Shown: positions 7,854 to 32,860 of the stretch, piece after piece
Position numbering within the stretch: the stretch's first letter is position 1
Layout: each line of letters starts with the position of its first letter
Origin: Octopus vulgaris
Lineage: Eukaryota
Assembly (NCBI GenBank): GCA_951406725.2
Contig: OX597821.1
Span: 58,590,001 to 58,654,000, forward strand
Reading direction: 5' to 3'
Length of the DNA stretch: 64,000 nt
The notes under the pieces: model-generated
Told to the model about the DNA's origin: nothing
What the model saw: the letters and a program-made list of their open reading frames with translations, nothing else
The model's database searches: none
Translations under genes and position numbers: made by a program

Positions 7854-8430
7854 TTAAATGTACTCTTATTCTCACCCTCAAACATACAATACTCTATTTT
7901 CATCGTTACTGTTTTTTACATTTCACTTTATTCCTATTTATGTTTACTTTTATTAATATATTTAATAAATGCATCAGAAAGTAGGAAATGCTTGAAATTG
8001 ATGCAAAAGAAAAAGAGTCACTTATTCAAGCCCTTCTCTTGCTATGGTGCATTGGACATCAATGAGTTTTTCTCCACTGTTCTTTCCTCTGAGTTGTTAT
8101 TTTTGATTTTCTTCCAGTTGGCTCCCTGTTTTTTCAGTTCTGCTTCAGTATCCCACTTCCGGTTATTTTTAGAGTGTTCTCTTGTCTGCCTCACTTGCGA
8201 GCGCCAGGTTAGGTCCTGGTTTCCTTGAGGGGAAGATTTCCCTCTCTCTGGTCTTGTTAATTTTGAATTGTCATTGATGTTTCTCTAACTTAGATTTTCT
8301 CTGGGTATGGGTTTTGGCCCAGCGCAAATCCATTTTCACCCTTGGAAAATGTGGTCATATTATTCTGGCCTCTGTTTTTTGACTGCTCAGCACGGGAAGC
8401 ACTATCAGGAGCTTGCACTCTGCTGGTATA

Positions 8431-8463
<33 letters not shown>

Positions 8464-8843
8464 TATGTTAGGGCATGGACTAGTGTGTTGCACTCATGAT
8501 CCCTAGATTGTGGTTTCAATTCCTAGACCGGGTGGTGTATTGTGTTCTTGACCAAAACATTTCGTCTCATGTTGCTCTGTGATCACTTTGACACCTGACG
8601 CCTGGTACACTGTGCACCTGTCCAGACAACATTGATTTGATGGAGAGAGTGAGCTAATAGGCAGCACAAACATTTGTTCATAATAAACAAATCGTTTGTG
8701 TAGGTTGTATGGCAAAAGCTAAATGCTTATATGTCATCTTCAACAGGAGAGTCCATCATGTATATATATATATAAACATTATCGACCACACATACTGAAT
8801 GTATATGTGTTGTGTGTTTGCTAGTAGGCTGTGAATTGGTGTG

Positions 8844-8899
8844 ATGGAGATTTCTACCTCAAAGTGCTTGCTTTTAAGACACCTGAAAGTGATGGACAG
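8844..8899 (+). CDS. ALS2: Alsin (ALS2) orthologue, probable first coding exon (ATG 8892 gives MDS; in-frame upstream ATG at 8844)
   Basis: ATG GAC AG|GTGAGA: a phase-2 donor matching the phase-2 acceptor at 32861, giving MDSEEEKDGIVCLWEG, similar to the vertebrate alsin N-terminus (MDS...KERGLVHIWQAG, from memory). Tandem acceptor TAGTAG at 8822-8827. Confidence 0.7.
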
Positions 8900-9848
8900 G
8901 TGAGACAACTCACCCCAAATCCCATCAAGTGGATGTATGATGAATGGTTTACATTTATGATCATATCTTTCTTTTCTTTTTTTTTCTTTGTTTTTTTTTT
9001 GTTTTGTTTTTTTTGCCATGCATAGCTGTGTAGTTAAGAACCTTGTTTTGCAGCCATGTGGTTTCAGGTTCGGTCCCACTGTGTAGAACCTTGGGCAAGT
9101 GTCTCAACTATAGCTTCAGCTCAGTCAATGCTTTGTGAGTGAATATGGTAGATGGAAACTGTAGTAGCTCGTGTGTGTGTGTGTGTGTACATGTATAAGT
9201 ATGTTTATGTGTGAATGTATGTATGTGTGTCTTTGTGCTTGTGTCTCTCCCACCTCCTCTTGACAACTGTGTTGGTTTGTTTACATGTCTGTAACTAAGC
9301 AGTTTAGCAAAAGAGACTGACAGAATAAGTCCCAGACTTAAAAAAAAATTCAGTACTGTGGTTGATTTGTTCAATTAAGCCCTTCAAGGTGGTGCCCCAG
9401 CATGGCTACAGTCCAATGACTGAAACATATCATAGAATAAAAGAGAGACTCATTATTCCTAAAACAGCATTTTCTGATGTTACCTTATCTGATGCAGTAG
9501 GTCGTGCTTTGTGAGGGATTTAGCTGCTGTTTTTAGTATTGTCTCTTCCTTGTCTTGTATAATGTTTTATGCAGTGTTTTTCATGAGGGGCACCCGAAAG
9601 GAATGAAAACCAGGGGGAAATATTGCCATGTTTGTTAAAATTAGATGGTCTTTAACCTGTTAGTATTTAAACTGGTCATATCTACCCCAAATATTCAATC
9701 TGTTCTGTGTTCAAACAGGCCAGATCCAGCCTTTCATACCTACCCTTCAGTGTCATTCCAAAAATAAGCAGTCACATCATTTTAAAATCTCAAAACAACA
9801 AGATAATGTGTAATTAATTCAGAACAGTGTGAAGATATGTGGCCTAAG

Positions 9849-10230
9849 CACAGGAGTGGCTGTGTGGTAAGTAGCTTACTTACCAACCACATGGTTCCAG
9901 GTTCAGTCCCACTGTGTGGCACCTTGGACAAGTGTCTTCTACAATAGCCTCGGACTGACCAAAGCTTTGTGAGTGGATTTGGTAGACGGAAACTGAAAGA
10001 AACCTGTCAAATATATATATGTGTGTGTGTGTGTGTCTTTGTCCCTCCAACATCACTTGACAACCGATGCTAGTGTGTTTACATCCCCATAATTTAGCAG
10101 TTCGGCAAAGTGACCGATAGAATAAGTACTAGGCTAACAAAAAATAAGTCCTGGGGTTGATTTGTTCGAAAAGGCGGTGCTCCAGCATGACAACAGTCAA
10201 ATGACTGAAACAAGTAAAAGAATAAAAGAA
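9849..10230 (+). mobile_element. tRNA-derived SINE family A, full length
   Basis: Colinear homology to 1419..1857. Confidence 0.85.
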
Positions 10231-11075
10231 TAGTTGTTTGGGTGTTCTACTCACAATTGCTAGAGTGTGGGTTCGTTTCTTGGACTAGGTAGCGTGTTGT
10301 GCTCTAGTGCTGTGTGGGGATCAGCATGTCAAAGAATAGACCCAGTGTTTCCTCTGCATGTCATAAAAGGCAATTAAATGAGGTTGAGGTAGGATTTGCA
10401 CTCTGACTCATAAAAACCCTCACCATCAATGACTACCCAAACAGACCCATGGGCTGGATGGTTGTCGCCTGAGTGGTGCAACAGTGCCATCCGCCAGGAG
10501 TAGGGAATTACCAACAAATGGTAAATGCAGTGACTCACTGTTACAGCGCATGCCCCTATACTACTACTCTTTTACTTGCTTCAGTCATTTGACTGTGGCC
10601 ATGCTTGAGTACTACCTTTAGTCAAGCAAATCAACCCCAGGACTTATTCTTTGTAAGCCTAGTACTTATTCTGTTACACTCTCTGAGTGGTTGGTATTAG
10701 GAAGGGCATCTGGCTGTAGAAACTATGCCAGATCAGATGGGAGTCTGGCGCAGCCTTCCAGCTTGCCAGCCTTGGTCAAACCATCCAACCCATGCCAGCA
10801 TGGAAAGCGAACGTTAAATGATGAGGATGATGATGAAACTCTGTTTTGTTTTCTTATTACACTTTACACTTTTACACTTTTACTTGTTTCAGTCATTTTG
10901 ACTGTGGTCATGCTAAAACACCACCTTTTAGTCAAAGAAATTGATCCCTGGACTTATTTGTAAACTTGGTACTCATTCTATCGGTCTGCTGAACTGCTAT
11001 GTTATGGGGATGTAAACACACCAAGATCGATTGTCAAGCAATGGTGAAGGGACAATCACAGACACAAACACACAA

Positions 11076-11128
<53 letters not shown>

Positions 11129-12518
11129 TGACATGCTTCTTTCAGTTTCCATCTACCAAATCCACTCCTGAGGCTATAGTAGAAGACACTTGCCCTAGGT
11201 GCCACACAGTGGAACTGAACCTGGAACCATGTGGTTGGGAAGCAAGCATCTTGCCTCACAGCCATCAATAAAGATTTGAGCAGGACTGGTGGGGAGAGAA
11301 GGGGGTTGGGGTCTGTTAGTTTAAGGGCCACTGGTTTAGTACATTAAAGCCAAGGCTAAATGCAATTTCCATAGCATATAAGTGATTGAGATTATAACAT
11401 TCTCCTTTAAACGGGATGCTGATCCATCATAGGGTTATAAGGCACAGGTGTGGCTGTTTGGTTGAGAATCAAGCTTCTCAACCATCTGGTGCTGGGTTCA
11501 ATCTGAATGTGTGGCACCTTGGACATGAGTCTTCTACTATATAGTGAGTGGATTTAGAAGATGGAAACTGAAAGAAGCCCATCTTATATACATGTGTCAG
11601 TGTGTGTGTGTACCGTTCTCTTGACATTATGTGATGGTTTAAATTAGCATTACTGTCATGCAAGCAATGTCCTTCATTTCTAGTCTTCCATGAAAAAACA
11701 TGTCTGACCATGGGAAAATATTATGTTGCTTGGAAACAGGTGAGGGTTGTCAACGCGATGGGTATCCAGCTGTAGAAAATGTACCTCAACAATTTCTGTC
11801 TGACCCGTGCAAGCATGGAAAAATGAACATTAAATTATGATGATGATAATGTCTGTCAATATGAGTTTCAAGAATGTCTTTTCCGTGTGGCAGGTATGTC
11901 TTAGATAAGAGACAAGAAGTGCATCCAGCTTTTGAAAAATCTGCCTCAATGAATTTTGTTTAATGCATGCGAGTACGGAAAAATGGACCTTGAAACAATG
12001 ATGATCTTCATCATGGGGATGATGAAACATATATTGAGAAAACAAAGTCACTGCCTTTGATATTGGCAAAATCATTGACAAGCAAGCCTCTATGTCTAAC
12101 ACCTTTTCTATAGATTACAGCAGGATTAGACCTTTCTCTCAGTTCTTATTGTGTCAGCCTATGTTTTTTGGTATCTGCTCCATCGATTTTGATGTCTCCT
12201 AAGAACCCATCATTTACTTGCATCTCTTTCTCCTCGTTAGAGACCTCCTGAAATTACTGCTATTCCTACATCATTGTCACCGTCATCATCATCATTTAAC
12301 ACGGATTTTCCTATGCTTGCATGGGTCAGACAGAATTTGCTGAGGCAGGTTTTCTATGGTCGGATGCCCTTCCTATTGTCAAGTAAGATAATATTTCCCC
12401 ATAGCAAGACAGGTTTTCATGGAAGACTGGAAACAAACAACCCCACTTATGTGATGGTGATGCTCATTTACAACTATCATGTGATGTCTAAACAAAGTCA
12501 CACACAAATATACATATG

Positions 12519-12590
<72 letters not shown>

Positions 12591-15500
12591 ATGACTGGCT
12601 TCTTTCAGTTGCTGTCTTCCAAATCTATACATAAGACTTTTGTCAGCCTGAGGCTAAAGTAGAAGGCCCTTGCCCAAAATGCCACAAAGTGGGCTTGAAC
12701 CCAAGACCCAAGATTTTTAACTACACAACCATGTCTGTGACTTAGAGAATGAGAATGCAGTAAAGTGGTTTGTGCTATACAGATGCAGGATGGAATGGTC
12801 TGAGTAAATACCAGGAGAAAAAAAAGTATTAAAGTTTGATCAGTATAAACACTGGTTTCCAGATTCTTTTCTACTCTAGGCACAAGGGAGCCAGTCAATT
12901 AGATTGACCCCTGTATGCAACTGGTACTTAATTTATCGATCCCAAAAGGATGAAAGGCTAAGTTGACCTCAGTGGAATTTGAACTCAGAACGTAAATACA
13001 GACGAAATGCCGCTAAGTATTTCACCTGGCATGCTAATGTTTCTTATTTCTTTATTGCCCACAAGGGGCTAAGCATAGAGGGGACAATCAAGGACAGATA
13101 AAGGGATTAAGTCGATGACATTGACCCAGTATGTAACTGGTACTTAATTTATCGATCCCGAAAGGATGAAAGGCAAAGTCGACTTCGGCGTAATTTGAAC
13201 TCAGAACATAACAGCAGACAAAATACTGCTAAGCATTTCACCCGGTGTGCTAACATTTCTGCCAGCTTGCCACCTTTTTCTCAGATTCAGCACCTTAGGC
13301 ATGTGAGACATTTTGGCATTGCTGATTTGGCACCGACTTACTTGACATCAGACATTTTAACGTCTTTCTCTCTCTCTCTCTCTCTCTCTCCCTCCTCCCC
13401 CTCTCTCTCTGTTTATGCACATGAGCATATTACTCATTATGTATATTAAGAGGGGGAAAGTTTTCATATCATTATGTTCAATTAATAAATCATAGTGCCT
13501 ATGCTAGTGCTATGTAAAAAAACACCCAGTACTCTCTGTAAAGTGGTTGTTGTTAGGAAAGGCCCCCAGTTGTGGAAACCATGCCAAAACAAACAATTGG
13601 AGCCTGTTGTAGCTCTCTGAATTGCCAGCTCCTGTCAAACTGTCCAACCCATGCTGGCATGAAAAACATGCTAAATGATGATGATGATGGTGATGTCTCT
13701 TCTCCCCCGCTTCTCTTACTCCCATCTCTCTCCTTTTGTATATTTCTGCGTGTGTGCAGTGTCAAAATGTAGTCACCAAAACTGGTCAGATGTCCAGTCC
13801 GTGTCCAAACAGCTGCATCCAATTGTCCAATCATCTCATTCCATATATAGAAGTAACTACTGGGCTATTATTCTTTTATTTGTTTCAGTCATTTGACTGC
13901 AGCCATACTGGAGCACCGGCCTTAGTTGAAGAAATCAACCCCAAGACTTATTCTTTGTAAGCTTAGTACTTATTCTATTGGTCTCTTTTGCTGAACTGTT
14001 AAGTTACGGTGACGTAAACACACAAACATTGGTTGTCAAGCGATGTCTGTATTTGCCCCCGCCACCATCACTTGACAACCGATGTTGGTGTGTTTACATC
14101 CCTGTAACTTTGTGGTTTGGCAAAAGCGACCACTAGAATAAGTACTAGGCTTACAAAGAATAAGTCCTGGGGTCGATTTGTTTCGACTAAAGGTGGTACT
14201 CCACCATGACTGCAGTAAAATGACTGAAACAATTGAAAAAGAAAAGAATAAGTACTCGAGTTGATTTGTTTGACTAAAACCCTTCTAAGCAATGCCCCAG
14301 CATGGTCACAACACAATGACTGAAACAAGTAAAAGATAAAAGATTATACCAAATCATCTCCTAGTTGAGGGCTATACTGCACTTTTTGACTGAGTGGTGA
14401 TGAACCATATTTGGTATGATATGATAATTACTTGCTTATTTTATTTTTGTGTCACAACCCATGCTGTCTCCAACCCATGCTGGCATGAAAAACATGCTAA
14501 ATGATGATGATGATGATGATGATGGTGATGTCTCTTCTCCCCCGCTTCTCTTACTCCCATCTCTCTCCTTTTGTATATTTCTACGTGTGTGCAGTGTCAA
14601 AATGTAGTCACCAAAACTGGTCAGATGTCCAGTCTGTGTCCAAACAGCTGCATCCAATTGTCCAATCATCTCATTCCATATGTAGAAGTAATTACTGGGC
14701 TACTGTTCTTTTATTTGTTTCAGTCTTATTTATCTAAGTCTGATGCAGTTGCCTTTGTTCAAATGGGAAGGTCCTCTGGAAAGAAAGATTGACTTTTAAC
14801 TGTAAAGTTGAATGATTGCAACTTTTACGTCTTTTAATGACTTTGCAACAATTTTGGGTTGACAAAACTGCAATAATTGATGTCATAAGGTGGTGAGCTG
14901 GCAGAAATGTTAGCATGTCGGGTTAAATGCTTAGCAGTATTTCATCTGTCTTTATGTTCTGAGTTCAAATTCTGCCAAGGTCAACTTTGACTTTCATCCT
15001 TTCGGGGTCGATAAATTAAGTACCAGTTGCATACAGGGGCCAATCTAATCGACTGGCCACCTCCCCAAAATTTTCAAGCCTTGTGCCCAGAGTAGAAAAA
15101 AATAATTGATGTTGTTGAATGTTAATTCTCAAAGATTATTTTCTGTGTGTGTGTGTGTGTGTGTGTGTTGTACATATGCATGTGTTGAAGATTAAGTTTT
15201 GGGGATTTCTAAAATGATAATATTCAAAGTGTTCATATACATCTACTATAGCCTGTGTCATCATCATCATCATCATTGTCATTTTAGTGTCTGCTTTTCC
15301 ATGCTCACTTGGCTCAGATGGAATTTTCTGCAGCTGGATGCCCTTCCTGTCACCAACCCTCACCTATTTCCTAGTAAAGTAATATTTTCCCCATGACCAA
15401 ACATGTTTGCAGGTAAGATTAGAAACAAAGGACACTCATAATAACAGCACTCACCATTATCATGCAATGTCAAGGCAAGGAAACAGTAACACACATACGC

Positions 15501-15814
15501 ACACACACACACTCACTCACACATACACACACACACGCGCGCGTGCATGCAAACACACACACAGACACATATATGGCATGTAAAAAGCACCATCTGAACG
15601 TGGGTGATGCCAGCACTGCCTTGACTGGCTTCCGTGCTGGTGGTACGTAAAAAGCACCCACTACACTCACGGAGTGGTTGGCATTAGGGAGGGCATCCAG
15701 CTGTAGAAACACTACCCGATCAGACTGGAGCCTGGTGCAGCCTCCAGGCATCCAGACCCTGGTCAAACCGTCCAGCCCATGCTAGCATGGAAAACGGACG
15801 TTAAACGATGATGA

Positions 15815-15859
<45 letters not shown>

Positions 15860-16815
15860 CGAGAGGTTTTGGTATCCAGAAGACCCAAAATGGCAGGTAA
15901 GACTATGTAAGTGCTACGAAAGGACTGTAGTTATTTAACTGTCTCATATCGTCTCTGCCTTTCTCTTTATAAATGTCCTAGAAATTTCACACTGCCTTGG
16001 CTTTGCTGTTCCATTTTATTTAACACACACACACTGCTGACTACCAAATCCATCTACAAGGCTTTGGTTGGCCCAGGGCTATAGTAGATGACACTTGCTC
16101 AAGATGCCATGCAGTGAGACTGAACCTAACTCCATGTGATTGGGAATCAAACTTCTTACCACACCTGCCCCTATTGACACAACTAAATTAATCTCACAGT
16201 GGTCCCGATGTTGGGTCTTCTCGTTACTCATTCAGTGGAACTCTCTGCTGATAGAATTGCAAAGAAAATGGTTGAATATTCCAAAGAGACTTGCACTCTT
16301 AGTTCAGTCTTCGGAGTGACTCGGTACAACATTAGATGTGACAAACTGGGTCTTTGAATTACAAATAAAGTACATCTGATGGGCTTCTATACAATTCCTT
16401 TCTGCCCAGTTTCATTCATAGCACTTGGGTTGATATGAGGATTTTGTAGATGATGCTGGCTCATGGGGTACATAAGGGACTTGATCCCAGACCCTCATGA
16501 TTGTAAGGTACTTCTGATCATTTTATTCTACCTATACACATCTTGTAAACAGACTTAATTCTTTCATACAAAATTTAAAAAAAAAAAAAACTTTTATCTT
16601 TTACTTGTTTCAGTCATTGGACAGTCGCCATACTAGGGTATCACCATGACAGTCTAGTTGAACAAATTGACCCCAGAACTTGGTTTTTTTATGTTTGGTA
16701 CTTATTCTGTTGGTCCCTTTTACTGAACTGCTAAGTTATAGGGGCATAAACAAACTAACACCAGTTGTCAAGTGGTTGTGGGGGACAAACGTAGTTACAA
16801 AGAAATGCATATACA

Positions 16816-16863
<48 letters not shown>

Positions 16864-19177
16864 AGGTTTCTACACAGTTTCCTTTTATGACAGACATATT
16901 CACAAGTCATTGGTCAACTCAGGGCTATAATAGAAGACACTTGCCTAAGGTGCCATGCCGTGGGACTGAACCCAAAACCACTTTGTTGCAAAATGGGCTT
17001 CTTAACCACACAGCCATGTCTGCACCTAACAATTTTTCTTTACTCTACAAATTTTAGCTTCAATTATGGAAGGCTGGTAAGGAAATTAAAAACATTAATT
17101 TGCAATGATGTAAACAGAAGTCAACTTGATGAACTGAATTTTCAGTGTCATGATTGGCAATATGGATTGCATGATGTTGTGATTGTAGACCCCATGTTGA
17201 GTCCTGATTGAGCTGAACTATGATCAGCTACGTTCCAGCCATGACCATCTCATCTAACTTTCAGTTATGGAGTATCTAGGACTACATTATCCAATCTGCC
17301 CTTCCAATGCTTAAGAAAAATATGGGTTGAGATTTGACTGTTGTTTCTAGCAAGTCGAGCATCCATTTAGAGAGGCACTCTCTTTTACTTGCAATAATTG
17401 TTGCTGGTGTTGTCCTAATTTTCAAATCATTATTTTTAATTGCTGCATAAATGACGTTGAGATTTCTAGTCACATGTTATCATTGACACCCATTAAACAT
17501 TTTGCTGTTTAACCCCAGGCTGGCTCTGGTTGTCCAGAATTATGATCAAAAACAATCCAGCTATAACCTCTTATTTATTTTTTTAAAAGTTTTTTTTCTA
17601 CTTGTTTCAGTCATTAGACCGTGGCCATGCTAGGGTACCACCTTGAAGAATTTTTCTTTGAATGAATTGACCCCACTTTTTTTTAAGGCTGGCATTTATT
17701 CTATCTGTCTCTTTTGCTGAACTGCTAAGTTAGGGGGGATGTAAACGTGCCAATGCCGGTTGTCCAGCAGTGGTGGCAAATCGACGCAGATACAAAGACA
17801 CATACACACACATACAGATTATATGTATATGACAGGCTTCTTTCAGTTTCCATCTACCAAATACACACACAAAGCTTTTGTTGGCCTGAGGTTGACCTTG
17901 TTATATTTTATATGCCATCAGATATGGTGTGGTGGTAAGAAGCTTGCTTCCCAACCACATGGTTCTGGGTTCAGTACCACTGCATGGCACCTTGGGTGAG
18001 GGTCTTCTACATTTTTATTGCTAACTTTTACATAGCTGGGGCTTGAAGTGTTTATGAATGCATACCTGATCGTTATAGACTCTATACGAGATCTTTTTTA
18101 CTCAGTAGTTTTATAAAATACATTTGAAAACTTTCACATACATTAAAAGCTACTAGAAATTTTAGCATTTTCTCATAGGTGTAATGCATATGAAGGTAGA
18201 AAGAAAGTAGAAGTTATTTTACATCTACATGAAAGTTTTCACAGATATAAAATGGCTATCAAATTTGTTAACAGAAAGACATTATATATATCTATAAATC
18301 TATATCTGTATCTATATATGAAAAGAAATATATATATATATATATATATATATGGGGCTTTGTTGGAGCTGGATTTTCTACGGGGATCATACTCTTGCTT
18401 ACCACCAACCTCAGTTTCTAGACACGAGTGGTCCTGAGACCAAGGCCTCTACCATGATTTTTAAGAAATGTGGTGGGAAGCCTCATGATAACAAAGGAGA
18501 ATGGACACCAGCCAGTCAGCCCAAAGGTTGGGTGGGCTGCACTTGCCTACATTGGTTGCTATGGCATTGAGGTAGATCTGGCCACCCCCTGTTAATGGAG
18601 ACAAAACCCGGATTTAAAACACTAGATGATGATGATATATATGTGTGTGTGTGTGTGTGTGTGCGTGTGCTGAACCTTTCTTTAAATTTGTTGGGTGTTC
18701 TTTTTTTGTTTTCAACTTCTTAAACTATAGAAAAGCTTTATCTCTTTTATGTTGTTACATGTAACGTGCTAATGTCATAAAAAAGACCTTTTACCTTTAC
18801 GATTTACATTACCCTTTTTTAAAATTTTGTTAGCATTTATGTAGTCAGGGTTTAAAGTGTTTATAAATGGGTACCTGTTATTTGTAGAACTTTTTACTCA
18901 GCAGTTTTACAGAATGCATTTGAAAAACACAAATTAAAAATTACTGGAAAATTTAATTCCCAATTAGAAAGGACCTAGTTATAATCTGATATTCATTTAA
19001 AAAAAAATACTATATTTACTCATATATAAGTGGCACCCTTAATTTAGTGTTTAAATCTTGCTACAAATTTTTTTTCCTTTCATAGTTTAAGCTTTGCCCC
19101 ATATAAGTCATATCCCAGTTTTTTTCCATTAAAATAAAGTATTTGACTATGTGACTTATACACAAGTAAATACAGTA

Positions 19178-19399
19178 TACAAGGGGATGCTGAAAAGTTC
19201 CTGGTTTTAAGGGTATCATGAAAGGCCTGGTTGGAGGCCCAACCATCTGGGTTCTTTCACAGGGCTTAGAAAAACTGAAGGCTCGCTGCAATAAGTGTGT
19301 GATTCTGAGAGGAGAATATGTTGACTAAAAAAAATCTTAATTAACTGATCCTCCTGTATTTTCTTTTACTCAAAGCCAGGAACTTTATAGCATCCCCTC

Positions 19400-19402
<3 letters not shown>
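19178..19402. mobile_element. Mariner-like MITE
   Basis: TIRs TA|CAAGGGGATGCTGAAAAGTTCCTGG and CCAGGAACTTTATAGCATCCCCTCG. Second copy in the opposite orientation at 32535..32753. Confidence 0.8.
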
Positions 19403-19436
<34 letters not shown>

Positions 19437-19570
19437 CACACACACATATATATATATATATTTAAAATATATTCTGCAAAGTGACTTTTTTTTAAGGTAT
19501 GTTTTGTAAAACATAACTAAACTATTAAAGTTTAAAAATTCACAAAAAGATATTTTTTTTTATTTTGATT

Positions 19571-20872
19571 TCAACAACAACAGCAGCAACAACAACAAAA
19601 ATATGAATACCATTTAGAACTCACTTTGGTAGTTTGTATTTGATTTTGTGGCATTTCTGTTGGACTGAAATGAGGAAAGCGAAGGGGTTTGCTAAATATT
19701 GGTGTTAAAAAGTTTGATGTTATTTTCTGCGACATTGTAAGGTGAGGTAAAATCCGTTGTCCAATGAAAATAGGTATCCTGAATCTTAGTTTCCCGCTTA
19801 ATCCAGAAAAAGTGATCTCAACCTGTAAGTAGTGGGACACTTGAAATAATTTGCATTTGTACTGACTGATACACAGGGCCGCATTCTTGTGAATAGGAAG
19901 AAAAATCTGGAATTTATTTTCCTTCTTTTCATTCTGTGATGGTTCCTCTATTGGACTAGGGTCCTTTGAGCGCACATGCGAAATGCATTTAGAAAAACGT
20001 TCACTCTTTTCTTCAAACTGAACCAACTGGTTAAGTGTTCCTGTAATTTTCGAAACTGATTTTGTTGGCCATCCTGGGTCGATGGCTATCTGGAGACCAA
20101 GGCAGATCCTCTCTCCTGGTTCATATAACCTCTTGTCAAGAGTTAAGACAATGTGAACTTGTTTTCCACGACTGAACTTTAATTTGGTTTTCTCTTCATG
20201 ATTCACAGGAATCAGTGCCTCTGACAGTCTGTTTACTAGGCTACTGGGAGATTCTTCAACTTGAAAGTGTTTCTTTCTCAGTAGCACAGTATGGGGATCC
20301 CTTGATTGAAAATTGTGGCTTGAGGGATGAATGTTGAGGGGTGTATGAATATATATGGCTATAAAGTAGGTAATTTCTAATACAACTGTGTTTTTGTCTT
20401 CATAGAGCAACGATGATGGTATATCTGGTGGTAACCAGAATTTATACTGTGAGCTGTACAAGCCTGGCATGGCAATCATCCTTTCATGAGGATTACCCAG
20501 AACAGCAAACTTTTTATTCATGAAAACCTTTTTAGGAGCACCTCCGATTCCTGTTTGTAGATATGTAGCACTGCTTTGACCAACGATAATCATTTCAATA
20601 AATTGTAGCTCCAAAGGATGTTTTATGTAAAACTCCAAGTCAATAGTCATCAGTTCACCAGGCTCATAATTTGCATCATCTGCTTTCTGAGTGTAGATTT
20701 GAAAATATGATATTGGGCTTGAGTTCCGTACCCTGTGTGTAGATCTACCCAGAGTTGGAAAGGTTGTAAACACTTGGTGTATATCTCTACTCGATAGTGA
20801 CTTTCGGATTGGTGCTCGATGGCGTGTATGATATGTCGACTGACTCAAAGTTTTCCTTCTTAGAGTTGTCAT
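19571..20872 (-). CDS. Alpha-arrestin / arrestin-domain-containing (ARRDC-like) protein, 433 aa, single coding exon, nested antisense in an ALS2 intron
   Basis: Long repeat-free ORF. Arrestin_N-like YEPGELMTIDLEFYIK and PGLYSSQYKFWLPPDIPSS...ITYFIAIYI; Arrestin_C-like VHIVLTLDKRLYEPGERICLGLQI and CKLFQVSHYLQVEI...LRFRIPIFIG. In-frame TGA two codons before the ATG. Ends in YSYFCCCCCCCC-stop. Confidence 0.85.
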   Translation of the reverse strand: MTTLRRKTLSQSTYHTRHRAPIRKSLSSRDIHQVFTTFPTLGRSTHRVRNSSPISYFQIYTQKADDANYEPGELMTIDLEFYIKHPLELQFIEMIIVGQSSATYLQTGIGGAPKKVFMNKKFAVLGNPHERMIAMPGLYSSQYKFWLPPDIPSSLLYEDKNTVVLEITYFIAIYIHTPLNIHPSSHNFQSRDPHTVLLRKKHFQVEESPSSLVNRLSEALIPVNHEEKTKLKFSRGKQVHIVLTLDKRLYEPGERICLGLQIAIDPGWPTKSVSKITGTLNQLVQFEEKSERFSKCISHVRSKDPSPIEEPSQNEKKENKFQIFLPIHKNAALCISQYKCKLFQVSHYLQVEITFSGLSGKLRFRIPIFIGQRILPHLTMSQKITSNFLTPIFSKPLRFPHFSPTEMPQNQIQTTKVSSKWYSYFCCCCCCCC

Positions 20873-23800
20873 CTTTCAACCAGTTATTGAATCTGAAAAG
20901 TGATTTCTGATTCTGTCAGGGAAATTTTTTCTTAAACTTGTATGATTTGCAGAAATCTCTGTTATGATGACACGTCTCCAGTTGAAGAAAATAATTTCTC
21001 AGCAAATCTTATTTATTTTGCTTTTCAGTGTTAAAGCTGTTGAGGAGTAGTTGCAGATTGTAGACTGTAATCTTTATTGTAGATATATGTGCTAGCAAAC
21101 TGGTTAAAGCACTTCTATACTCACAAATTTTTTTGTTTCTGTTTTAGTTTTTATTAAAGGTGTGTCATTGTAAAATGATGTATCCAGCAAGCAATTTCTT
21201 TTTATAGCTTAAGACGGTAACTTTTTGTTTTTTGTGGTTTCCATGCACACAGTACAGATAATGTTCGCCTCTGGGGGAGAAAACAGGTTCTACCTAAGTG
21301 TCAGTTGCCAGCACCATACATAATACTGATTGACCAATAATGAAGCTGGATTGATATAGAGAATGTTAAACACATTGTTCCTTTAAATTATGGAGGATAT
21401 ATATGTAAATTACCAATTCAGTGTCTGAGTTATTTATTCATTCCATTTCCAACTTATATACTGGGAAGAAAATACAAAGCAACATTCCGTTATGTAACTT
21501 TTCTATGTTAACTACCAGTATGATTGGCTCCTGGTTATTGTTGCCTTCTTTTTTTAAACAAGTAATTTTTTTTTCAATTTGCTGAATGATATTTCTAAAT
21601 TTCCCATGAAGGCATATGCTTTCATTTTATCTGATTGTTTTCTTGGGAAAAATGTTTTGTGGAGATCTAATTTGAATAAACTGACATGAAACAAGAAAGA
21701 AATCACTGTTGTTTAATAATAACAAACTAGAACTTGATGAGGGAAGCATTTCAACTCTCTCTCTCATTATCTATCAGATGCAGTGGGACTGGCATGAGAC
21801 AATTGGGTGTAGCTGTTTGGACATTGATGATTTGGCCTGGCTGACTGGACATCCAGCTTGTTTTGGTGACAGTACTTTCTGGTGCTGGAGGAAAATTTAC
21901 ACACTCACACACACTTGTGCTCAGAAGTGTGTGTGTGTGTGTAAAAACCATGCCAAAAGTGACCTTGCCTGTGCAAGTACCACATAAAAAGCACTCAGCC
22001 CACTCTGTAGAGTAGTTGGTGCTAGGAAGGGCATCCAGCCACAAAAAAAAAAAGATGCCAAAACAGACACAGAAGTCTGGTGTAGTCTTCTACCTGGTCA
22101 GATCCTGTCAAACCATCCAACCCATGCCAGCATGGAAGGCGGATGTTAAACGATGTTGATGGTGTGTGTGTGTGTGTGAAGGCATGTGGCCTAGTGGTTG
22201 GGACAGCCACACTTTTGAGATTGTGGTTTTGATTCTCAGGCTGGTTGCACATTGTGTTCTTGAGCAAAGCACTTCATTTCATGCTGCTCCAGTCTGCTCA
22301 GTTGTAAATGGGTAACCCTTCCAAGTGGGGGGAATGTTGGCCTGCTCCTCTAGCCAGCAGAGTAGCTTCATTTGAAAGCTAAAATAATACAAAGTGCATT
22401 GTGACTAGCGATGTATAACAACATCTGATAGTCTGGTCAATACTGCAGTTGCTATTTTACTCTACAGGACCCCACCCCCACTCCATAGCTGTTTGATGTT
22501 TTAAAAATCCTATATATTTGAGTATTATTAGAAATTGTATAAAAAAAAATTGTTTAAATATTTTGTTTATTGAAGAAGTATAACTAATTTATTGCAGATA
22601 ATTTTCAACCACAAAATCTTACATAAACCCCAGTTCAGAGCCACTGAGTTAATGGTTTGAGAAAGAATTTGAACAGTGGGAAGGGAGTTCTTGATAGATT
22701 CAGATGTGGGAGATTTAGGACTAATTGAACCAGTTTGAGGAAGAGGAGAGGTGCACTGACTTGGTGTAAGAAGACATGGTTTGTCAACTGTATAAAGATG
22801 TCAAACTCAGAAGAATCAATGGCATTGGGTTGGCAACTTTGGAGAAGGGGCATAACCTGACTATAGACTAGTAATTGGAGTGTGTTAATGTATTCATATT
22901 TGCTAGCTGTTGTTTCTGGCTTTGAGAAAAAGTTGTAACCTTTGTGATAGAAATATTTGTCATAATACTGTAGAAGACAGCTGGAAACTATTCTATGCTT
23001 TTCTTTCATTATTTCTTAATTTCAAGTCCCAACTTCTAATCCCACCAAATATTATGAAGAAATAATTATCTCCCTTGTATTAACTGTCCACTAGGGAACT
23101 CCATGTATTCCAGTACAGCTTTCCCAATAAAATATCAATTCTTTCTCTGCATATTTTTTTTATTGCTGTTACTTGTCTGTCAAAACATGAGAATGTATAA
23201 AGTAACTGAAGTTGGTATGTGGGTTTTGCTGAGATAGCTGAGAGAGAGAGAGAGAGAGAATGTGTGAAAAGGTCAGAGTGTCAAAAGAAAACCTGTTGGA
23301 CCTTTATAATGATATACAAAAAGTAATGCCACAATACAGTGCAGTGGAAGCAGGTGCAAACCAGCTGTGCACTTGTATGTTTTTTTTTTCTGGTTGACAA
23401 ACAAATGACAAATTTCTTGTTAATGTTATAAAAGTTAAAAGTAAGATTCTGTCATGAAATGAAGATGATAAACATATATTTATATAAATCATACCCCTAA
23501 TTTAGTGTTAAATTTTGGTACAAAGATTGCATGCATACCATGGCAGTTTTAGCTTTATCCCATGTATAAGTCACAACCCTGTTTTTGCAGTTTTTATAAA
23601 GTATAAAAATAATGCAACTTATAAAGGAATAAATGCAGTAAGTTCACCAAAAGTGGATTTTAAAAGATTTTTTTAACAATTTGCATTAGCAGGACTGTTT
23701 TAATACGTCAGATATTTATACTAACAAGTTCTTGAGTCACAAAATACTACTAAATTGGAACCTAATAGAAAAATACCGTCTGTCTGTCTGCCTCTCTGTG

Positions 23801-25035
23801 TGTCTGTCTGTTTGTCTGTCTGTCTCTCTCTCTCTCACTGACACACACACACGGCATCGTGTTCACATGGATGTAAACTTGATGCATCTGATCCTAGGCA
23901 TTATAGTTTTAGTTCATCTAAGTAAAATATTTAATCCCTGAATGTACTCAATGACTCATTAAGTAGTTGGTGCTATGAATTTATGTCTGAATTATACAAA
24001 CAGGAAGAATAGAACATAGAAAAACCCATGCCAGCATGGAAAGTGGACGTTAAACGATGTTGATAATGATGATGACGTGAATAAACAAGTGTTACATTTG
24101 ATAGAGTAATCCGAATGCTAAAGGGCTAAATCTTTGACTATACATTCAAATTTTTCTATTAAATGGACAATACAGGCACAGCTGTGGCTGTGTGGTTAGA
24201 AGTTTGGCTCCCAATCACATGGTTCTGGGTTCACTCCCACATTGTGGCACTTTGGGTAAGTGTCTTCTATTATAGTGTCGGGGCCAATCAAAGTCTTGTC
24301 AGTGGATTTGGCTGACAGAAATTGAAAAAAGCCTGTCATATATATGTGTGTGTGTGTATCTTTATGTCTGAGTTGTAGTGCACCTGAGCACTGTACACAA
24401 TTATTATTATTATTATTATTATAACTTAGCAGTTTTGACAAAAGAAACCATTGGAATAAATACCAGACTTTAAAAAAAACAAAAAACGTACAGGGGTTGA
24501 TTCATCTAACTAAAAATTCTTCAAGGCGTTGCCCCAGTATGGCTGCGGTTTAATGACTGAACTGAGTAAGATATAAAGGGAAATATAAAAGAATACATGA
24601 AACAGATTCCTGTAATTCCCATGTAATGTCAGCTTCAACTAAAACATGTTTAATGTTTTATCTTCAGCCCTGTATCTCCATAGCTTTGTCACTTTTCACA
24701 TAAAGTAGTAAATATGTAGGTGTAGTTAGCATAAAACATATTTGATGGATTCCCAGAAAGGTCATTGTTTTTAGGAAAGGAAGGCAGTGTGTAAGGATGG
24801 TTGGCAGGGTGGGGGTTAGTAAATGTGGGCAGTTGAGCATACTGGAATAACCAGCCTTCAAAATGTAAACCAGTTTATGAGACAGCAAGGTTTCCAAAGT
24901 AATGCAGCACAGCAGAGACCAATAAATGAAGCCAATGATCAATAGCAAATAAAACTCAGAATCCAAATTAATTAGCTCTGGTCTGTATCGATAAAAATCA
25001 TTTAATAAAGCTTGGACATTTTAATAAATTAATAT

Positions 25036-25700
25036 TCTTTTCTACTCTAGGCACAAGGGCTGAAATGTTTGGGGAGGTGGGGCCAGTCGATTAGATTGAC
25101 CTCAGTACACACCTGGTATTCAATTTATTGACCCTGAAAGGATGAAAGACAAAATTGACCTTGGCGGAATTTGAACTCGGAATCTAAAGACAGATGAAAT
25201 ATCGCTAAGCATTTCTCCTAGAGTGCTAGTGATTCTGCCAGCTTGCTGCTTTTTATTCGTTTCTAATCTAGGCACAAGGCCCAAAATTTTGGGGGAGGGG
25301 ACCAGTTGATTAGATCGACCCCAGTACACAACTGGTACTTAATTTACTGATCCTGAAAGGATGAAAGGCAAAGTCGACCTTGGTGGAATTTGAACTCAGA
25401 ATGTAAAGACAGATGAAATACCGCTAAGCATTTTGGCCAGCGTGCTAATGTTTCTGCCAGCTTGCCACCATAATTGGAATTAGATAATTCTTTTCTACTC
25501 TAGTCACAAGGCCCGAAATTTTTGGGGAGGAGGTCAGTTAATTAGATCGACCCCAGTATGCAACTGGAACTTAATTTATCGACCCTGAAAGGATGATAAG
25601 CAAAGTCGACCTCAGCAGAATTTGAACTCAGAACATAAAAGCAGACAGAATACCGCTAAGCATTTCACCCAGTGTGCTAACGTTTCTGCCAGCTCGCCGC
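25036..25700 (-). mobile_element. Three head-to-tail copies of SINE family B
   Basis: Three ~215 bp units (about 25036-25250, 25257-25470, 25487-25700), each reverse-complementary to the 4972..5190 unit. Confidence 0.82.
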
Positions 25701-27284
25701 CTTTTTAATAAATGAATATTGTGTAGGTGGATGGGAATGCTGATGTTTTGAATAATAATGCTTTCTTGAAGTGAGAAATTTCAAAGTGTATAAAATAGTA
25801 CTAAGCAAAACAGAAGCTTGAAGGATATGGGAGAGAGGGAGTGAGAAGGTTCATGTGTGGCTTTGTGGTTAAGAGGTTTGCTTCCCAACCACATGGTTTC
25901 AGGTTCAGTCCTACTGCATAGCACTTTAGGATAGTGTTGTCTGCTATAGTTTTTGGCCAACCAAAGATTTGTGGGTAAATCTGGTAGATAGAAACTAAAA
26001 GAAGCACATCATGTGTGTGTGTGTGGGTTTGTCCTGCACCACCACTTGACAACTGATGCTGCTTTAGAAAATTACTATTTTTAAATCTCTTTGTTTACAT
26101 CCCTGTGACTTAGCAGTTCAGCAAAAGAGACCAATAGAATAAATACAAGACTTAAAAATAAGTACTGGTACTGATGTGTTCCACTAAACCCTTCAAGGTA
26201 GTGCCCCAGCATGGTCACAGCTATGAAATCCACTCACAAGGCTTTAGTTGGGCCACAGCTATAGCATCAGGCTTAATATAATTTAAACAGTCAGTTAGGG
26301 GCTAACTTACTAACTTCATATTCAAGTCTCTCTTCAGCTTATCATCATTCCGATTGCTATCTTTGTTTTAATGTCCACATTTCCACGTTTGCATGTCTTG
26401 GCCGGAATTTTATTTAGGCAAATTTTCTATGACTGGATGCCCTTCCTGTTGCTAGTGACACCTGTTGCCAGTGACATCTCTCTTGTATTAACACAAACTA
26501 CAATGACAAACTAAGACTACTGTATTTTCTGGCATACAAATCAACATAGTATATAATGTTAACATGTAGTGTAAACATTCAAACATCGTCACTATCTTTC
26601 CAAATCCTTCTGCATTTCCCATGGAATTTTTGGTTCTCCAAAGTCGTCTGGGTGCATAAGTCAACCTACATCTCTTGGCTACAAATTTTAACCTTAAAAA
26701 AATTTGACTTTTATATTGGAAAATACAGCAAGCGATGATCTTACTGCTGTAGTTGCTTAAGTTATATTGAGTTTCCTGTGACTTAAGTAATTTTAGAACT
26801 TGAATCTTCAGTTACGAGAGTGAGAGAGAGAAATAGAATGAGAGAAACACATGTACACAACAAAAGTCTCTTTGACAACATTCCGTGGATTTGGTCATCA
26901 AGAACAGAGACAAGATCTCACAAAGCTCCCATTAAAAACACCGAGCACGTGGCTTAAAATATTGCGTGCTTTTCTTTTTTTAAATAAAAATTCTTTCCTA
27001 TGACTAACTTAACAGTTTATTAATTTGTATAAATTTACTCTAAACTATTTGTTGTTGATTTTTATTTTTTCTGATTCATTTCTATAAACATTGAAAATGT
27101 AAATATCACAAAATATTCTCTTTATTTTATTTATGACAAAGCATCATCACAATTCTATTTTGAATCTGTTACATTCTATTGCCATGTGTTGTATTATTGT
27201 ATTGCTTCATTCATTGAATTCAAGATCTCTCAATTCACCATAACATTCTATGTATGACTGAATGTGTGTATATTTACAAGCACA

Positions 27285-27319
<35 letters not shown>

Positions 27320-27491
27320 TTGCATGTAAGTGTTTGTATGTGCTTAATTTGTATCCCTCACAAACATCACTCCTCACACAGACATAGACCTCGGAGTAAC
27401 GGAGCCCTCACATTAAAACAATGTCGTCAACTTTATAGAGTTAGCACCAATAATATATTCAGTGCATAGCCTCAAGGAGTATGTTTGTACT

Positions 27492-27568
27492 ATGAATGTC
27501 AGTTACCCTGACGTCTGTCACAGACTCAGCCAGTCTCTCAACTGCAGTTTCTGTTGCCAATTAATGCG
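27492..27568 (+). CDS. ALS2: Candidate alternative first coding exon of ALS2 (MNVSYPDVCHRLSQSLNCSFCCQLMR)
   Basis: ATG-started 77 nt open frame ending CG|GTAAAT (phase 2), compatible with the 32861 acceptor; lies in a repeat-poor island. No transcript evidence. Confidence 0.4.
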
Positions 27569-27976
27569 GTAAATATACTTGATACTGTATTTTTTCAGGA
27601 CTTTTAAAAATTTTATCTAATCGCAAATGCTCGATAACAGACAGTATTATTTTTCAAAACCCTATCTCGCAAAAGCACTCAGGTTCAAATCTGCTCTCTC
27701 TTTTAGATACACACATGCCATCACTATCATCATCATTTTAATGTCCACTTTTCGATGCTTGCATGGGTCAGATGGAATTTGTTGAGGCAGATTTTCTAGC
27801 CCTTCCTGTTACCACCCTTCATCTGTCTCCAAGCGAGGTAATATTTCCCCATGGACAGACATGTTTTACTTGGAATCTTGGAAATGAAGGGTACCACTTA
27901 AATGACAGTGGCACTCATTTACAACAATTATACCAGGTCAAGACAAAGATGCTAACTCAACACACACAAACACATG

Positions 27977-28027
<51 letters not shown>

Positions 28028-29329
28028 GCGTGCACACACAGATGCACACACACGTGATGAGCTTCTTTTAGTTTCCATCTATGAAAACCATTCACAAAGC
28101 TTTAGTTGGGTCAGAGCTATGGCAGAAGACATTTGTCCAAAGTGCTGCATGGGGGAAATGAACCTGGAAACAAGTGGTTGGGAAGCAAGCTTCTTAATCA
28201 CACAGTTACACCTGCACCTATTACTCACACTTGCATACACACATATGCATATATATATATATAATGCGGTCAATGCCAGTGCTGCCTGACTGGCTCCTAT
28301 GCTGGTGGCATATAAAAAGCACTATTCAAGCGTGACAGATGCCAGTGCCACCTGACTGGCATGTAAAAAGCATCATTTGAGCGTGGTCGATGCCAGTGCT
28401 GTCTGACTGGCTTTTATGCCAGTGGCACGTAAAAAGCACCCACTACACTCTTGGAGTGGATGATGTTAGGAAGGGCATCCAACTGTAGAAACTTTGCCAA
28501 ATCAGATTGTTGCATGGTACAGCCTCCTGGCTTGCCAGTCCCCAGTCAAACTGTCCAACCCATGCCTGCATGGAAAGTGGAGCAGATGTTAAATGATGTT
28601 AATGATGATGATGATATATTTATATATATATATGCATGAGGGCTTGGAAATTTCTTGTTTGATACGTAGGTGTGTATTTAGCCTGTCAGGGTGGGTTACA
28701 CTCTAGTCTGTGGTGAAGGCAACTAACCCAGAAGATTGAGAACTCTAACAGAAGTATGTTATTCATTAAGTTTGTGACAAACATTGACACCAACTTTCTG
28801 CTATTGGCGTTTCCAAATGTTAGTGGCTATAATATTGGCTGTTAGACCCTCATGAGAATCAGGAGAATAAGAGAACATTCAAATCTGCACATGCACTGAC
28901 TTCAAATACTGTACACATTCACACAAACATGTACAAATACCCTGTTGATGTTGTTGAAAATTCCAATGAAGGAGCCTTAAATCTAGGTTAGAAACCTGCT
29001 CTTTATTGGCAAGAAATCTTGAAATAAAACTGAATAACATACATACATACATACACACATACATACACACGTACATGTACATACATATATATATACATAC
29101 TTACTACTATCAGTTGTGTCCTCAAAAATAGAAAACATACATTGATTACAGTAAAATTGTGTATTTTAGGTCAAACCAGTAACTATTTTCATGCTTATGG
29201 GAAAACATCTAATAATATGAATATTTTATGTAATGTCTGTCATATTACTTAATATGCATTTTCAGTTCTCATTATCTCTTTCTGTATTATCTTGTTTTTT
29301 ACTTTAAATTAATAGCAATCGTTTTATTC

Positions 29330-29860
29330 CATTTCATCTGCTTCACTTGGCTTAACTGCTGATGTAATGACATTACATTATAATTAGACAACCAGGTCAG
29401 GTATACTTTTAAGCAATCTTCAGTGAATTCACTACCTCTTCCATCTGATATGAACTGAACATTCAATTTTTTTAATTCTGAGAAACTAAGATTCTGAATC
29501 ATAACTCTGAGCACCTTTTCAAACTCCACCTGTCTAACATCCATGAACATGTTTACAAAGTCAGAAAAGAGCACATCTTCCATGACTTTCGGAAGAATTT
29601 TTTCATGCTAAGAGTTGCTGAAGTATGGAACAAACTGCCAGCATCAGTTGTTAGTTGTCGGAGCACTGCATCCTTCAAAACTTCCATGCTTCTTGAGATT
29701 TGCCTACACTACACCTGATTTTTCTCCTCTCCATACACACGCAAGCATGTATCTGACTCATACACTGTTCACTTTCCAGACTATTGTACATTACTGTATA
29801 TGCTATTTATACACTTTTGACAAGTTGTGGTGCACCTGAACACTGTATACATTAATTTCA
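29330..29860 (+). mobile_element. Degraded CR1-type LINE 3' end
   Basis: Translates, with a frameshift, to RKNFF..LRVAEVWNKLPASVVSCRSTASFK, typical of CR1 ORF2 C-termini. Related fragment at about 48640-48800. Confidence 0.65.
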
Positions 29861-30529
29861 TTATATTATATTATATTTTAAAATTTCTAATTAGAAGTTT
29901 TTTACTTGACACAATCCCCATCCACTGAGTCAAACACCTTATGGAGGTTGATGTATTAGGTTGCAAGCAGCCCATGCTGAAAGCTCTGCTTGCATTCAAT
30001 GAGTACACAAAGAGCCAGGATCCTGTCAGTAGTTGAACTCTTTGGCATGAACCCTTGAGATGTGTCCTGTTACCTGTATGATTCAAGAGTGCCAGCTCAG
30101 ACTGTTTGACCATGTTGCTTGATTTCATGAGTTAGACCCTGTTTACCATGTTGTCTTCACTGAGGATTTGGCTGAGTTAATGGCTCATCTTGGTTGACTA
30201 CATGTTACATGGTCACAGTAGATGAGGAGGTATCTTGCAGAAATGAGGACTGGTTGAGACTTTGCTTGATGGGTCACCCGGGAGGATCCAGGGATATACT
30301 GACAAAGGGTGAATGCAGTAACATGCTGCAATGGTACATACCCCCTACACCTGACCCAACCTGTCTGTACACAATAATCTACAATATAAATTGGACATGG
30401 GCGATTGTTGTATTCTTTCTTGTCTTGAGGTTCACAGCCAAACGGCTGGCTGGATTCGCTTAAAAAATGGCACACATGTGGAGACGGGTGCATAGATTGG
30501 AATGCAGTTTGTATTTTTTTCCTGGCCCC

Positions 30530-30757
30530 CATGAAGTCCTCTGAACTTTCCAGAAAGTCCCAAATCCTTGGAACTTTCCAGGAAATCATCGGAAGTATCC
30601 AGGAAGTCCCATCCTCGGCAGTTCCGAGGATTTGGGTACTTCCTGGGGGAACTTTCCAGGAAATGCTCGGAACTTTCTAGGAAGCCCCAAATCCTTGGAA
30701 CTTTCCAGGAGATCCTCAGAAGTTTCCAGGAAGTCCTCAGAACTTTCCAGGAAGACC
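30530..30757 (+). repeat. ~21 bp-unit minisatellite (consensus about GGAACTTTCCAGGAAGTCCTC)
   Basis: About ten degenerate GAACTTTCCAGGAA cores in tandem, directly joined to the 3' half of a family A SINE. Confidence 0.85.
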
Positions 30758-32534
30758 CATGTGTGTGTGTCTGTGTTTGTTCCCCAACATCGCTTGACAA
30801 CCGATGCTGGTGTGTTTACGTTCGGCAAGAGAGACTGATAGAATAAGTACTAGGCTAACAAAGAATAAGTCCTAGGGTCGGTTTGCTCAACTAAAGGCAG
30901 TGCTCCAGCATGGCTACAGTCAAATGACTGAAACAAATAAAAGAAGAAAAGAATATATATATAGGCATGGCTGTGTTGTTAAGAAGCTTGCTTTGCACCC
31001 ATGTGAATTTGGGTTCGGCCCCACTGCATGGTACCTTGAGCAAGTGTTTTTGACGATAGCCCTGGGCCAACAAATGTTGTGTGAGTGAATTTGGTTGACT
31101 GTAACTACAAGAAACCCATTGGTAAATGATGACGATAATGTTGATATTAACTCTTCATCATCATCATCATCGTTTAACATCCGCTTTCTATGTGGGTTGG
31201 ATGATTTGACTTGAGGACTGGCGAACCAGATGGCTGCACCAGACTCCAATCTGATCTGGCAGAGTTTCTACAGCTGGATGCCCTTCCTAACGCCAACCAC
31301 TCCGAGAGTGTAGCTACTAATTTCAATTATTAATTAATTTTTCAAACATTAAAGCAAGAGACCATTAAGCAGGGTGTTGCTATCATCATCATCATCATGT
31401 CTGCTTTTTCCATGCCACAATGGAAAAAAGATTTGAGGTACTGTTGTTCAGCTGGACATCCTTCCTGATGCCAACCATTTCATGTTTTCAGTTAAATACT
31501 TTGTTTCAATGGCTTTCAGATGTTTTTACTTATGGGGGACATAAGTGACATCTCTGTCATCTCTGTCTAAGCAGCCTCAATGAAAAGACACACCCACACA
31601 CACTCTCTCTCTTTCTCTCTCACTTTTGAAGCCACACAGCCATGCTTGTTGTCCAACATATAATGATTCATCATTTAACATTCACTTTTCCATGCTTGCG
31701 TGAGTCAGATGAGAATTGTTTGGGTGGATTTTCTATGACTAATCCTCACTTGCCAACCCTCAATTGTTTCCAAGCAAACTTGTATTTCCTATGGCCAGAC
31801 ATGTTTTCACAGAAGACAGAAAACAATCATTACATGCGCGACAATAATGCTCATTTACAACCACTATGTCAAGACAAGGGTACACACACACACACACATG
31901 CTCACACACACACACACACACACGTATGTATATTGAACTGAATTCTTTCATGTTTTGCTCTACCATGCAAAGGGCTTTGGTCCATCTGGGGCTATAGCGG
32001 AAGACAGCTTCCCAAGTTGCTGTCCTGTAGAACTGAACCCAAGTCCTCGTGTATGGGAAGCAAGTGCCTTAATCACACACCCATGCTTGTATCTAAATGT
32101 GGGTGTATATATTTATGTGTGAGTGTGTGTGAATGTGGCCAGACCCCCTTAGAGTGTGTGAATTTAAGGGCCAAAACACTTGCCTGAGGGGAGTTGCTTC
32201 TCTGAAGACTTTCTGCTGTTCAGCTGTCTTGAGAGTGAGAGTTTCTTATCACTATGTGTGTGTGTGTATATATATATAAATGTATGTATATTTTTTTAAA
32301 GTGTACAAATAAGGAAAAAAATAAATAGTTACCAGGGTAGCAAAAATTCACATATATAATTAAAAAGTAATGCCATAATACATTATGGAGGATATATCAT
32401 AAACAATAATTAATTTATGAATATATCGATGGCCAAACATGTTATCATAAAATATATAGAAGAAAAACGTTTATAATTTTGAACAAGTCACAATTATAAC
32501 TAAGAGAGTTTTAAAAACCCTTACACGTTTTATA

Positions 32535-32753: not shown

Positions 32754-32860
32754 CTTGTTTATATGTTTGTGTGTGCATATGTGTGCGTGTTTGTATGTAT
32801 TTGCATGTATGCATTCATATCTATAGTCTATCATTATCCTTTTCTTTTTTCTTTTTACAG

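Follow-up and report, generated by a model that had tools for sequence, protein, structure and literature searches.

Genes lying within the introns of other genes are common in animals: across seven vertebrates, 4.3-8.7% of genes take part in nested structures, 74-78% of the simple nested pairs in human and mouse lie on opposite strands, and the internal genes are the more tissue-specific ones (PMC8467205, in excerpt), and in Drosophila the expression of the two genes of a nested pair tends to diverge (PMC5174743, in excerpt). The opposite-strand nested genes described in these two sources are short and lie on the antisense strand of a long intron, in a host with broad expression, as does the octopus gene described here, which differs from the typical guest in being an old, apparently single-copy lineage rather than a young duplicate. 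The closest described relatives of its product are the alpha-arrestins (ARRDC1-4, TXNIP, and the yeast ARTs), which likewise consist of two beta-sandwiches with no predicted N-domain helix and a disordered tail; in contrast to these, the octopus protein has no (P/L)PxY motif, carries a P.F.[RK]P..F motif and a cysteine cluster in its tail instead, and begins with a basic, Ser/Thr-rich extension (11 K/R, 1 D/E, and 17 S/T in 52 aa). Among alpha-type arrestins, ARRDC5 reportedly has a role in testis, which cannot be transferred to the octopus arrestin; like the latter, it is described as lacking (P/L)PxY (PMC2699828, in excerpt). C. elegans ARRD-6 (PDB 7USY), whose own cysteines were proposed as a membrane anchor (PMC9605866, in excerpt), is the best PDB match by profile and by Foldseek, but shares only 17% identity with the octopus protein and has its cysteines in the C-edge loop, whereas those of octopus form a terminal run. 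VPS26 and the visual and beta-arrestins have the same fold, yet the octopus protein differs from the former in having no Pfam Vps26 match and from the latter in having neither clathrin box nor AP-2 motif.

The window analyzed here is a stretch of 64,000 nucleotides from Octopus vulgaris (contig OX597821.1, positions 58,590,001 to 58,654,000), and its features are collected in Table 1. The proteins it encodes are nearly identical to Octopus records. An initial annotation had described an intact 433-codon minus-strand ORF in this window as an intronless, retrocopy-like and alpha-arrestin-like gene nested antisense within the first coding intron of ALS2, the gene for alsin. The ORF itself was borne out, as it runs stop-free for 433 aa from an ATG at 20872 to a stop at 19571 and ends in eight cysteines, compared with a longest stop-free frame of 200 aa (mean 123) in 100 base shuffles of positions 9001-32000. 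The splice acceptor reported ahead of it is also present at the exact spacing, the ATG lying 20 nt past the end of a TTTTCAG heptamer that occurs twice on the minus strand in the 11.8 kb upstream of the ORF. An in-frame stop separates acceptor and ATG, so any upstream arrestin exon would be non-coding in the ORF frame; no minus-strand donor consensus site was found in 20.9-33 kb under the pattern used, and the 5' UTR exon was not located. Directly past the stop codon, an A-rich stretch with AATAAA lies in AT-rich DNA, and CpG o/e within the ORF is 0.42. The RefSeq model of the same locus in O. bimaculoides, LOC128248556, is an uncharacterized gene of which no mention was found in the open-access literature. 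The reading that we prefer, at a probability of roughly 0.65, is that the ORF encodes a PPxY-less arrestin of an old one-exon mollusc lineage, which likely sits as an antisense passenger in a 34-67 kb ALS2 intron and is predicted to be tethered to membranes by a palmitoylated cysteine tail; such a passenger is likely to have its own promoter.

Table 1. Features of the arrestin gene and its ALS2 host in the 64,000-nt window
Feature	Positions	Strand	Basis
Window part of ALS2 first coding intron	1..32860	+	mapped first exons
'MDS' exon, ATG-GAC-AG GT; used by no annotated isoform, probably a chance match	8892..8899	+	
CDS, one exon, 433 aa, arrestin-clan protein P0001	19571..20872	-	ORF list, Pfam, orthologues
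Run of eight Cys at C-terminal end, predicted palmitoylation anchor	19574..19597	-	identical in three octopods
Tail motif P.F.[RK]P..FP.F, residues 391-402	19667..19702	-	family alignment
Arrestin C-domain, residues 237-372	19757..20164	-	Pfam PF02752, E=6.9e-17, 62.5 bits, cut-off 27.7
Arrestin N-domain, about residues 54-205, all-beta in model	20258..20713	-	AlphaFold2, 32-row alignment
Putative acceptor of 5' UTR intron	20893..20899	-	TTTTCAG; similar acceptor in L022
ALS2 second coding exon, start of RCC1-like domain	32861..33105	+	tblastn, Pfam
Further ALS2 coding exons, to about residue 1196 of 1894	34779..62438	+	tblastn with three cephalopod alsins

The proposed nesting also stood, as the ALS2 exon at 32861 was recovered by tblastn and the CDS of the ORF lies wholly between the mapped ALS2 first exons and this exon, in antisense. 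What had to be given up was the start of ALS2, which the initial annotation had placed at an 'MDS' exon ending at 8899. This exon is one of 42 candidates in 1-32861 that combine an ATG with a phase-2 donor, and among the 12 of 18 cephalopod alsin records that reach the N-terminus, seven begin MDN...S, four MSD...C, one MC, and none MDS. Two annotated first exons were mapped, both to positions upstream of the window: an MDNNMNS exon maps uniquely in the 2.8 Gb genome to G000:C8:58555549-58555568, with a GTAAGT donor, and an MSD exon maps to C8:58588712-58588890, both on the ALS2 strand; each is followed by a GT donor of the correct phase and is embedded in CpG-rich DNA. In-silico splicing of these exons to 32861 gives exactly the N-termini of 4 and 3 alsin records, and splicing of the MDS exon gives none. 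The first coding intron measures 67,292 nt from the MDN exon or 33,970 nt from the MSD exon, beginning 34.4 kb or 1.1 kb upstream of base 1, respectively, and the ORF is inside both. The 5' structure of ALS2 is hereby corrected: the gene has two alternative first coding exons with 33 kb between them, of which the MSD exon adds a 60-residue N-terminus that is kept in three Octopus species. The annotated MC start was not located, the lone candidate for this first exon having been rejected because the DNA around it is poor in CpG.

Base composition points the same way for the host. Ahead of the MDN exon, CpG o/e stands at 0.84; it is about 1.0 at both first exons and falls to 0.25-0.33 across the ALS2 intron and the rest of the gene, with the window part of the intron CpG-depleted from about base 500. 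This profile fits gene-body methylation, which has been reported for octopus (PMC9476566, in excerpt), and thus suggests a long-standing ALS2 transcription unit that extends over the arrestin gene. The description of the intron as repeat-laden was accurate, with about 48% of it repeated within the 114 kb examined. Several other features of the host were noted. About 10.4-11.3 kb upstream of the window, the ALS2 intron contains some 900 bases of TC-rich simple repeat (L008). An ALS2 exon of 1.8 kb (window 34779-36575) carries, within the RCC1-like domain, a long insert that is Ser/Glu-rich and evolves fast, at the place of which cuttlefish alsin has tandem peptide repeats. In a later ALS2 intron (window 58100-60000), a repeated purine-skewed block has a CpG o/e of about 0.8 versus 0.3 around it and is perhaps a young insertion.

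The orthologues found are full length, with 421/433 identical residues (97.2%) in O. bimaculoides and 326/431 (75.6%) in Argonauta. For comparison, alsin is 97.4% identical in O. bimaculoides (1794/1841) and 85.3% in Argonauta (1560/1829). Together, the full-length orthologues and these identity levels indicate that the arrestin ORF is under constraint, somewhat looser than that on its host. The accessions of alsin and arrestin are consecutive in both species (XP_052825972/3 and XP_052825974 in O. bimaculoides; GAB1600522 and GAB1600523 in Argonauta) and come from equal-sized contigs, which establishes adjacency in the annotation, though not nesting as such, so that the arrangement is probably the same as in Octopus vulgaris. 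A word-based homologue search with the ORF protein returned Argonauta only, and one with the family profile returned three already-known rows only. No squid or cuttlefish (decapod) member of the arrestin family was found by the homologue searches, including that of 1.8 billion representatives, and this lack of decapod hits may be due to clustering or annotation.

The encoded protein is a member of the arrestin clan with the two-lobed arrestin fold. Both checks proposed in the initial annotation, arrestin domain profiles and structure prediction, speak to this, the former in part: the Arrestin_C profile (PF02752) matches the protein as well as 32/32 family rows, whereas Arrestin_N misses the octopus protein yet matches 30/32 family rows. 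Whereas modeling of the lone sequence reached a pLDDT of 29, too low to be of use, a 32-row alignment gave an AlphaFold2 model with a mean pLDDT of 74 that is poor at residues 1-50, 182-191, and 377-412. Residues 50-380 of this model align with arrestin-clan structures at Z 15-18; in VIA, VPS26 and ARRD-6 tied at Z of about 18 (rmsd 4.2-4.7 over 270-293 residues), and visual and beta-arrestins reached Z 15-16. Foldseek matched the model to ARRD-6 (best), TXNIP, VPS26, and visual/beta-arrestins, and the best PDB matches of the family profile were ARRD-6 (3e-21) and TXNIP (8e-18), then beta-arrestins (3e-9); with the single sequence, only beta-arrestins were returned, at non-significant E-values of 0.4-0.8. 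No helix of at least 4 residues occurs in residues 54-205 of the model, so helix I of the N-domain is predicted to be absent. The Vps26 profile (PF03643) matched neither the octopus protein at E<=1 nor the 32 family rows at E<=0.01. A short strand at residues 418-422, directly before the cysteines, is confidently modeled and may fold back onto the core.

A search of 1.8 billion representatives returned, counting the query itself, 40 proteins at E<=0.001, and among the best 17 of these besides the query, the 12 with species names come from 7 gastropods, 4 bivalves, and 1 chiton. The Atlas annotates the family as 'arrestin' only. In a quick tree of 33 rows (42 minus 10 partial or part-matching rows, plus one octopus paralogue), SH-aLRT support was 99 for gastropods, 96 for a bivalve clade, 100 for octopods, and 83 for a clade of 15 other rows; this tree has no bootstrap, and the one octopus paralogue is its sole outgroup alpha-arrestin. 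The 15-row clade (P0017, P0018, P0020, P0023-P0027, P0029-P0031, P0034, P0035, P0037, and P0041), in which many members close with a cluster of Cys and then a G.G tail, might widen the family to animals other than molluscs or further. Searched against the octopus genome, a Haliotis member found the ORF best at 5e-26 and the next arrestin at 3e-4, and a second family member found the ORF at 2e-20 and the next at 6e-4, placing the ORF 17-22 orders of magnitude ahead for both queries. The octopus protein itself has one match in the 2.8 Gb genome and no closer parent there, in a search that runs exon by exon and could miss a paralogue with many or small exons; seven other Pfam arrestin matches lie elsewhere, none of them close to the ORF gene. 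Besides these comparisons, we noted a second intronless arrestin ORF of 391 codons (L010:991-2166, on G000:C21), a distant relative whose printed sequence lacks PPxY, as well as two pairs of nearby Arrestin_C matches (L012-L015), about 96 kb and 18 kb apart, of which the one on C12 is an inverted pair and the one on C19 probably represents exons of one gene.

Gene structure outside octopods came from a metagenome scan, in which 2 of 100 pattern matches proved to be family loci. The 8.5 kb contig L022 carries a complete bivalve-clade member of 647 aa in one uninterrupted ORF with a TTTTCAG 128 nt ahead of the ATG, and L023 carries a partial member that is uninterrupted as far as the contig goes; with this evidence from one complete and one partial contig, the ancestral gene probably had its coding sequence in a single exon preceded by a 5' UTR acceptor, and the octopus gene would then be an orthologue rather than a fresh retrocopy. 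As expected, the prokaryote genomes and viral contigs scanned held no relative. We conclude that the ORF gene likely represents, as its only member in octopus, an old arrestin lineage that spans the molluscs. The retrocopy origin offered by the initial annotation is left unsupported, because mollusc relatives exist, match the ORF best, and include a bivalve-clade member that is equally intronless in its CDS; these data are compatible with an ancient retroposition before the family diversified, or with a later relocation to ALS2.

Such a move is the alternative that fares best, and we rate it as tentative, somewhat short of an even chance: an old single-exon gene would have entered the ALS2 intron in the stem lineage of cephalopods or of octopods, its original copy being lost, and transcriptional interference would then have accompanied fast evolution of both its sequence and its expression. 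The octopod stem in the quick tree is indeed long (2.28 changes per column, in a tree of this gene family alone), and most of a long N-terminal extension has been lost in octopus, where about 50 aa precede the fold, the named members from gastropods and bivalves having 85-270 aa there. A burst of evolution after nesting has been reported in Drosophila (PMC5174743, in excerpt). No ALS2 exon occurs in the 8.5 kb of L022, which says little because this contig is far shorter than the octopus intron. This alternative is compatible with our preferred reading of an old one-exon passenger and differs from it only in the date of nesting.

Properties of the tail set this family apart from canonical alpha-arrestins. 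Terminal cysteine clusters are typical palmitoylation sites, and at least 2 Cys fall among the last 20 residues in 27/33 full-length family rows (42 minus one long partial-match row and eight fragments); the relaxed tail motif [PS].F.[RK][PR] follows the C-domain in the same proportion of these rows (27/33). (P/L)PxY is absent from the octopus protein and present in only 2/42 family rows, in neither case within the tail. A pattern search with the clathrin-box and AP-2 motifs taken from PMC2699828 (in excerpt), which are diagnostic of beta-arrestins only, found neither in the octopus protein. The cargo-adaptor role that the initial annotation had assumed is therefore doubtful in its canonical form, and on motif content the family appears alpha-arrestin-like yet not a canonical ubiquitin-ligase adaptor, by a PPxY criterion that is imperfect for alpha-arrestins given the lack of (P/L)PxY in ARRDC5 (PMC2699828, in excerpt). 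A loop cysteine, kept in 16/17 aligned family rows and replaced in Octopus, aligns with C196 of ARRD-6, beside W197 of a C-edge loop that has been proposed as palmitoylated (PMC9605866, in excerpt). Taken together, the missing PPxY, clathrin, and AP-2 motifs, the cysteine tails, and the ARRD-6-aligned loop cysteine favor a lipid-anchored adaptor without direct ligase recruitment, in which a predicted palmitoyl anchor likely substitutes for the PPxY route.

The initial annotation had gone further and proposed that a retrocopy settled in ALS2 and formed a co-regulated or mutually exclusive endosomal pair, in which the arrestin picks cargo and alsin activates Rab5. The alsin family acts in endocytic traffic, and the single coding exon with an acceptor right before its ATG, the A-rich stretch with AATAAA past the stop, and the adjacency with alsin kept in Argonauta would all suit this proposal, as would the activity of arrestins in endocytic traffic (PMC2699828, in excerpt). 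Nevertheless, we consider it unlikely, in view of the lack of a closer parent in the exon-by-exon search of the octopus genome, the coding exon and acceptor of the same kind in L022, and the absence of all three trafficking motifs; moreover, nested pairs tend to diverge (PMC5174743, in excerpt) or show no special relation (PMC8467205, in excerpt). As nesting is common according to the latter source, no co-regulation is needed to account for an arrestin in ALS2, and there is nothing unusual in a nested gene occupying an intron of 67 kb. The endosomal label is the only link between alsin and the arrestin and is itself weakened because PPxY is missing; a functional pairing of the two is unlikely. 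No description of an ALS2-arrestin host-guest pair was found in the open-access literature.

A different function is suggested by ARRD-6, which sits on the TMC-1/CALM-1 complex of C. elegans: the octopus protein might be no trafficking adaptor but a lipid-anchored component that assists a sensory channel or a receptor complex. The first rank of ARRD-6 by profile and Foldseek and the alignment of the family loop cysteine with its C196 (PMC9605866, in excerpt) accord with this idea, but that rank means little because, apart from ARRD-6, the hits include no alpha-type arrestin other than fragments of TXNIP/ARRDC3, and identity is low, VPS26 ties in VIA Z, TXNIP is close in E-value, a cysteine loop at the C-edge position is common in alpha-arrestins, and Octopus itself has no loop cysteine. 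By analogy, a sensory-channel role is possible and weakly supported, and we regard this account of the octopus protein as improbable. A more elaborate version, in which palmitoyl-tailed, PPxY-less arrestins across molluscs (and perhaps more widely) are ligase-free sensory channel or receptor subunits like ARRD-6 on TMC-1, were remodeled on the octopod stem after entering ALS2 (short N-terminus, loss of the loop cysteine in Octopus, Cys8), and are linked through antisense transcription to which of the two ALS2 promoters is used, is more improbable still. Equally hard to sustain is an arrangement in which the two genes are interleaved or mere neighbors, with an arrestin 5' exon beyond an ALS2 exon or with most ALS2 starts between the ORF and 32861, for although the unlocated first exons of the arrestin and of the 'MC' isoform leave room for it, both mapped ALS2 first exons lie upstream with in-phase donors and CpG-rich surroundings, the MDN start is common to Octopus, Argonauta, and cuttlefish records, and no CpG-rich start exists in 20.9-32.0 kb.

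For the preferred passenger reading, we propose the following picture. A non-coding first exon would be joined to the coding exon at the TTTTCAG acceptor, 20 nt ahead of the ATG. The Cys8 tail, once acylated, would act with the basic N-terminus to tether the two beta-sandwiches at a membrane. The anchored beta-sandwiches may then engage a membrane protein and alter where it resides or how it is sorted, and Nedd4-type ligases would not be recruited directly by the arrestin. ALS2 would serve as a broadly expressed host, with expression of the arrestin likely narrower, as is usual for nested genes, and any cross-talk between the two would take the form of transcriptional interference rather than a shared pathway.

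Overall, the nesting itself matters little, as long introns often house antisense genes. The finding of more lasting value is the subfamily: about 40 diverged proteins that lack PPxY and have in common a tail motif and a cysteine end, of which no description was found in the open-access literature searched. If the tail is an acyl anchor, these proteins would represent a ligase-independent route of arrestins to membranes, and would offer a testable parallel to the question of how ARRD-6 functions on the TMC-1 complex.
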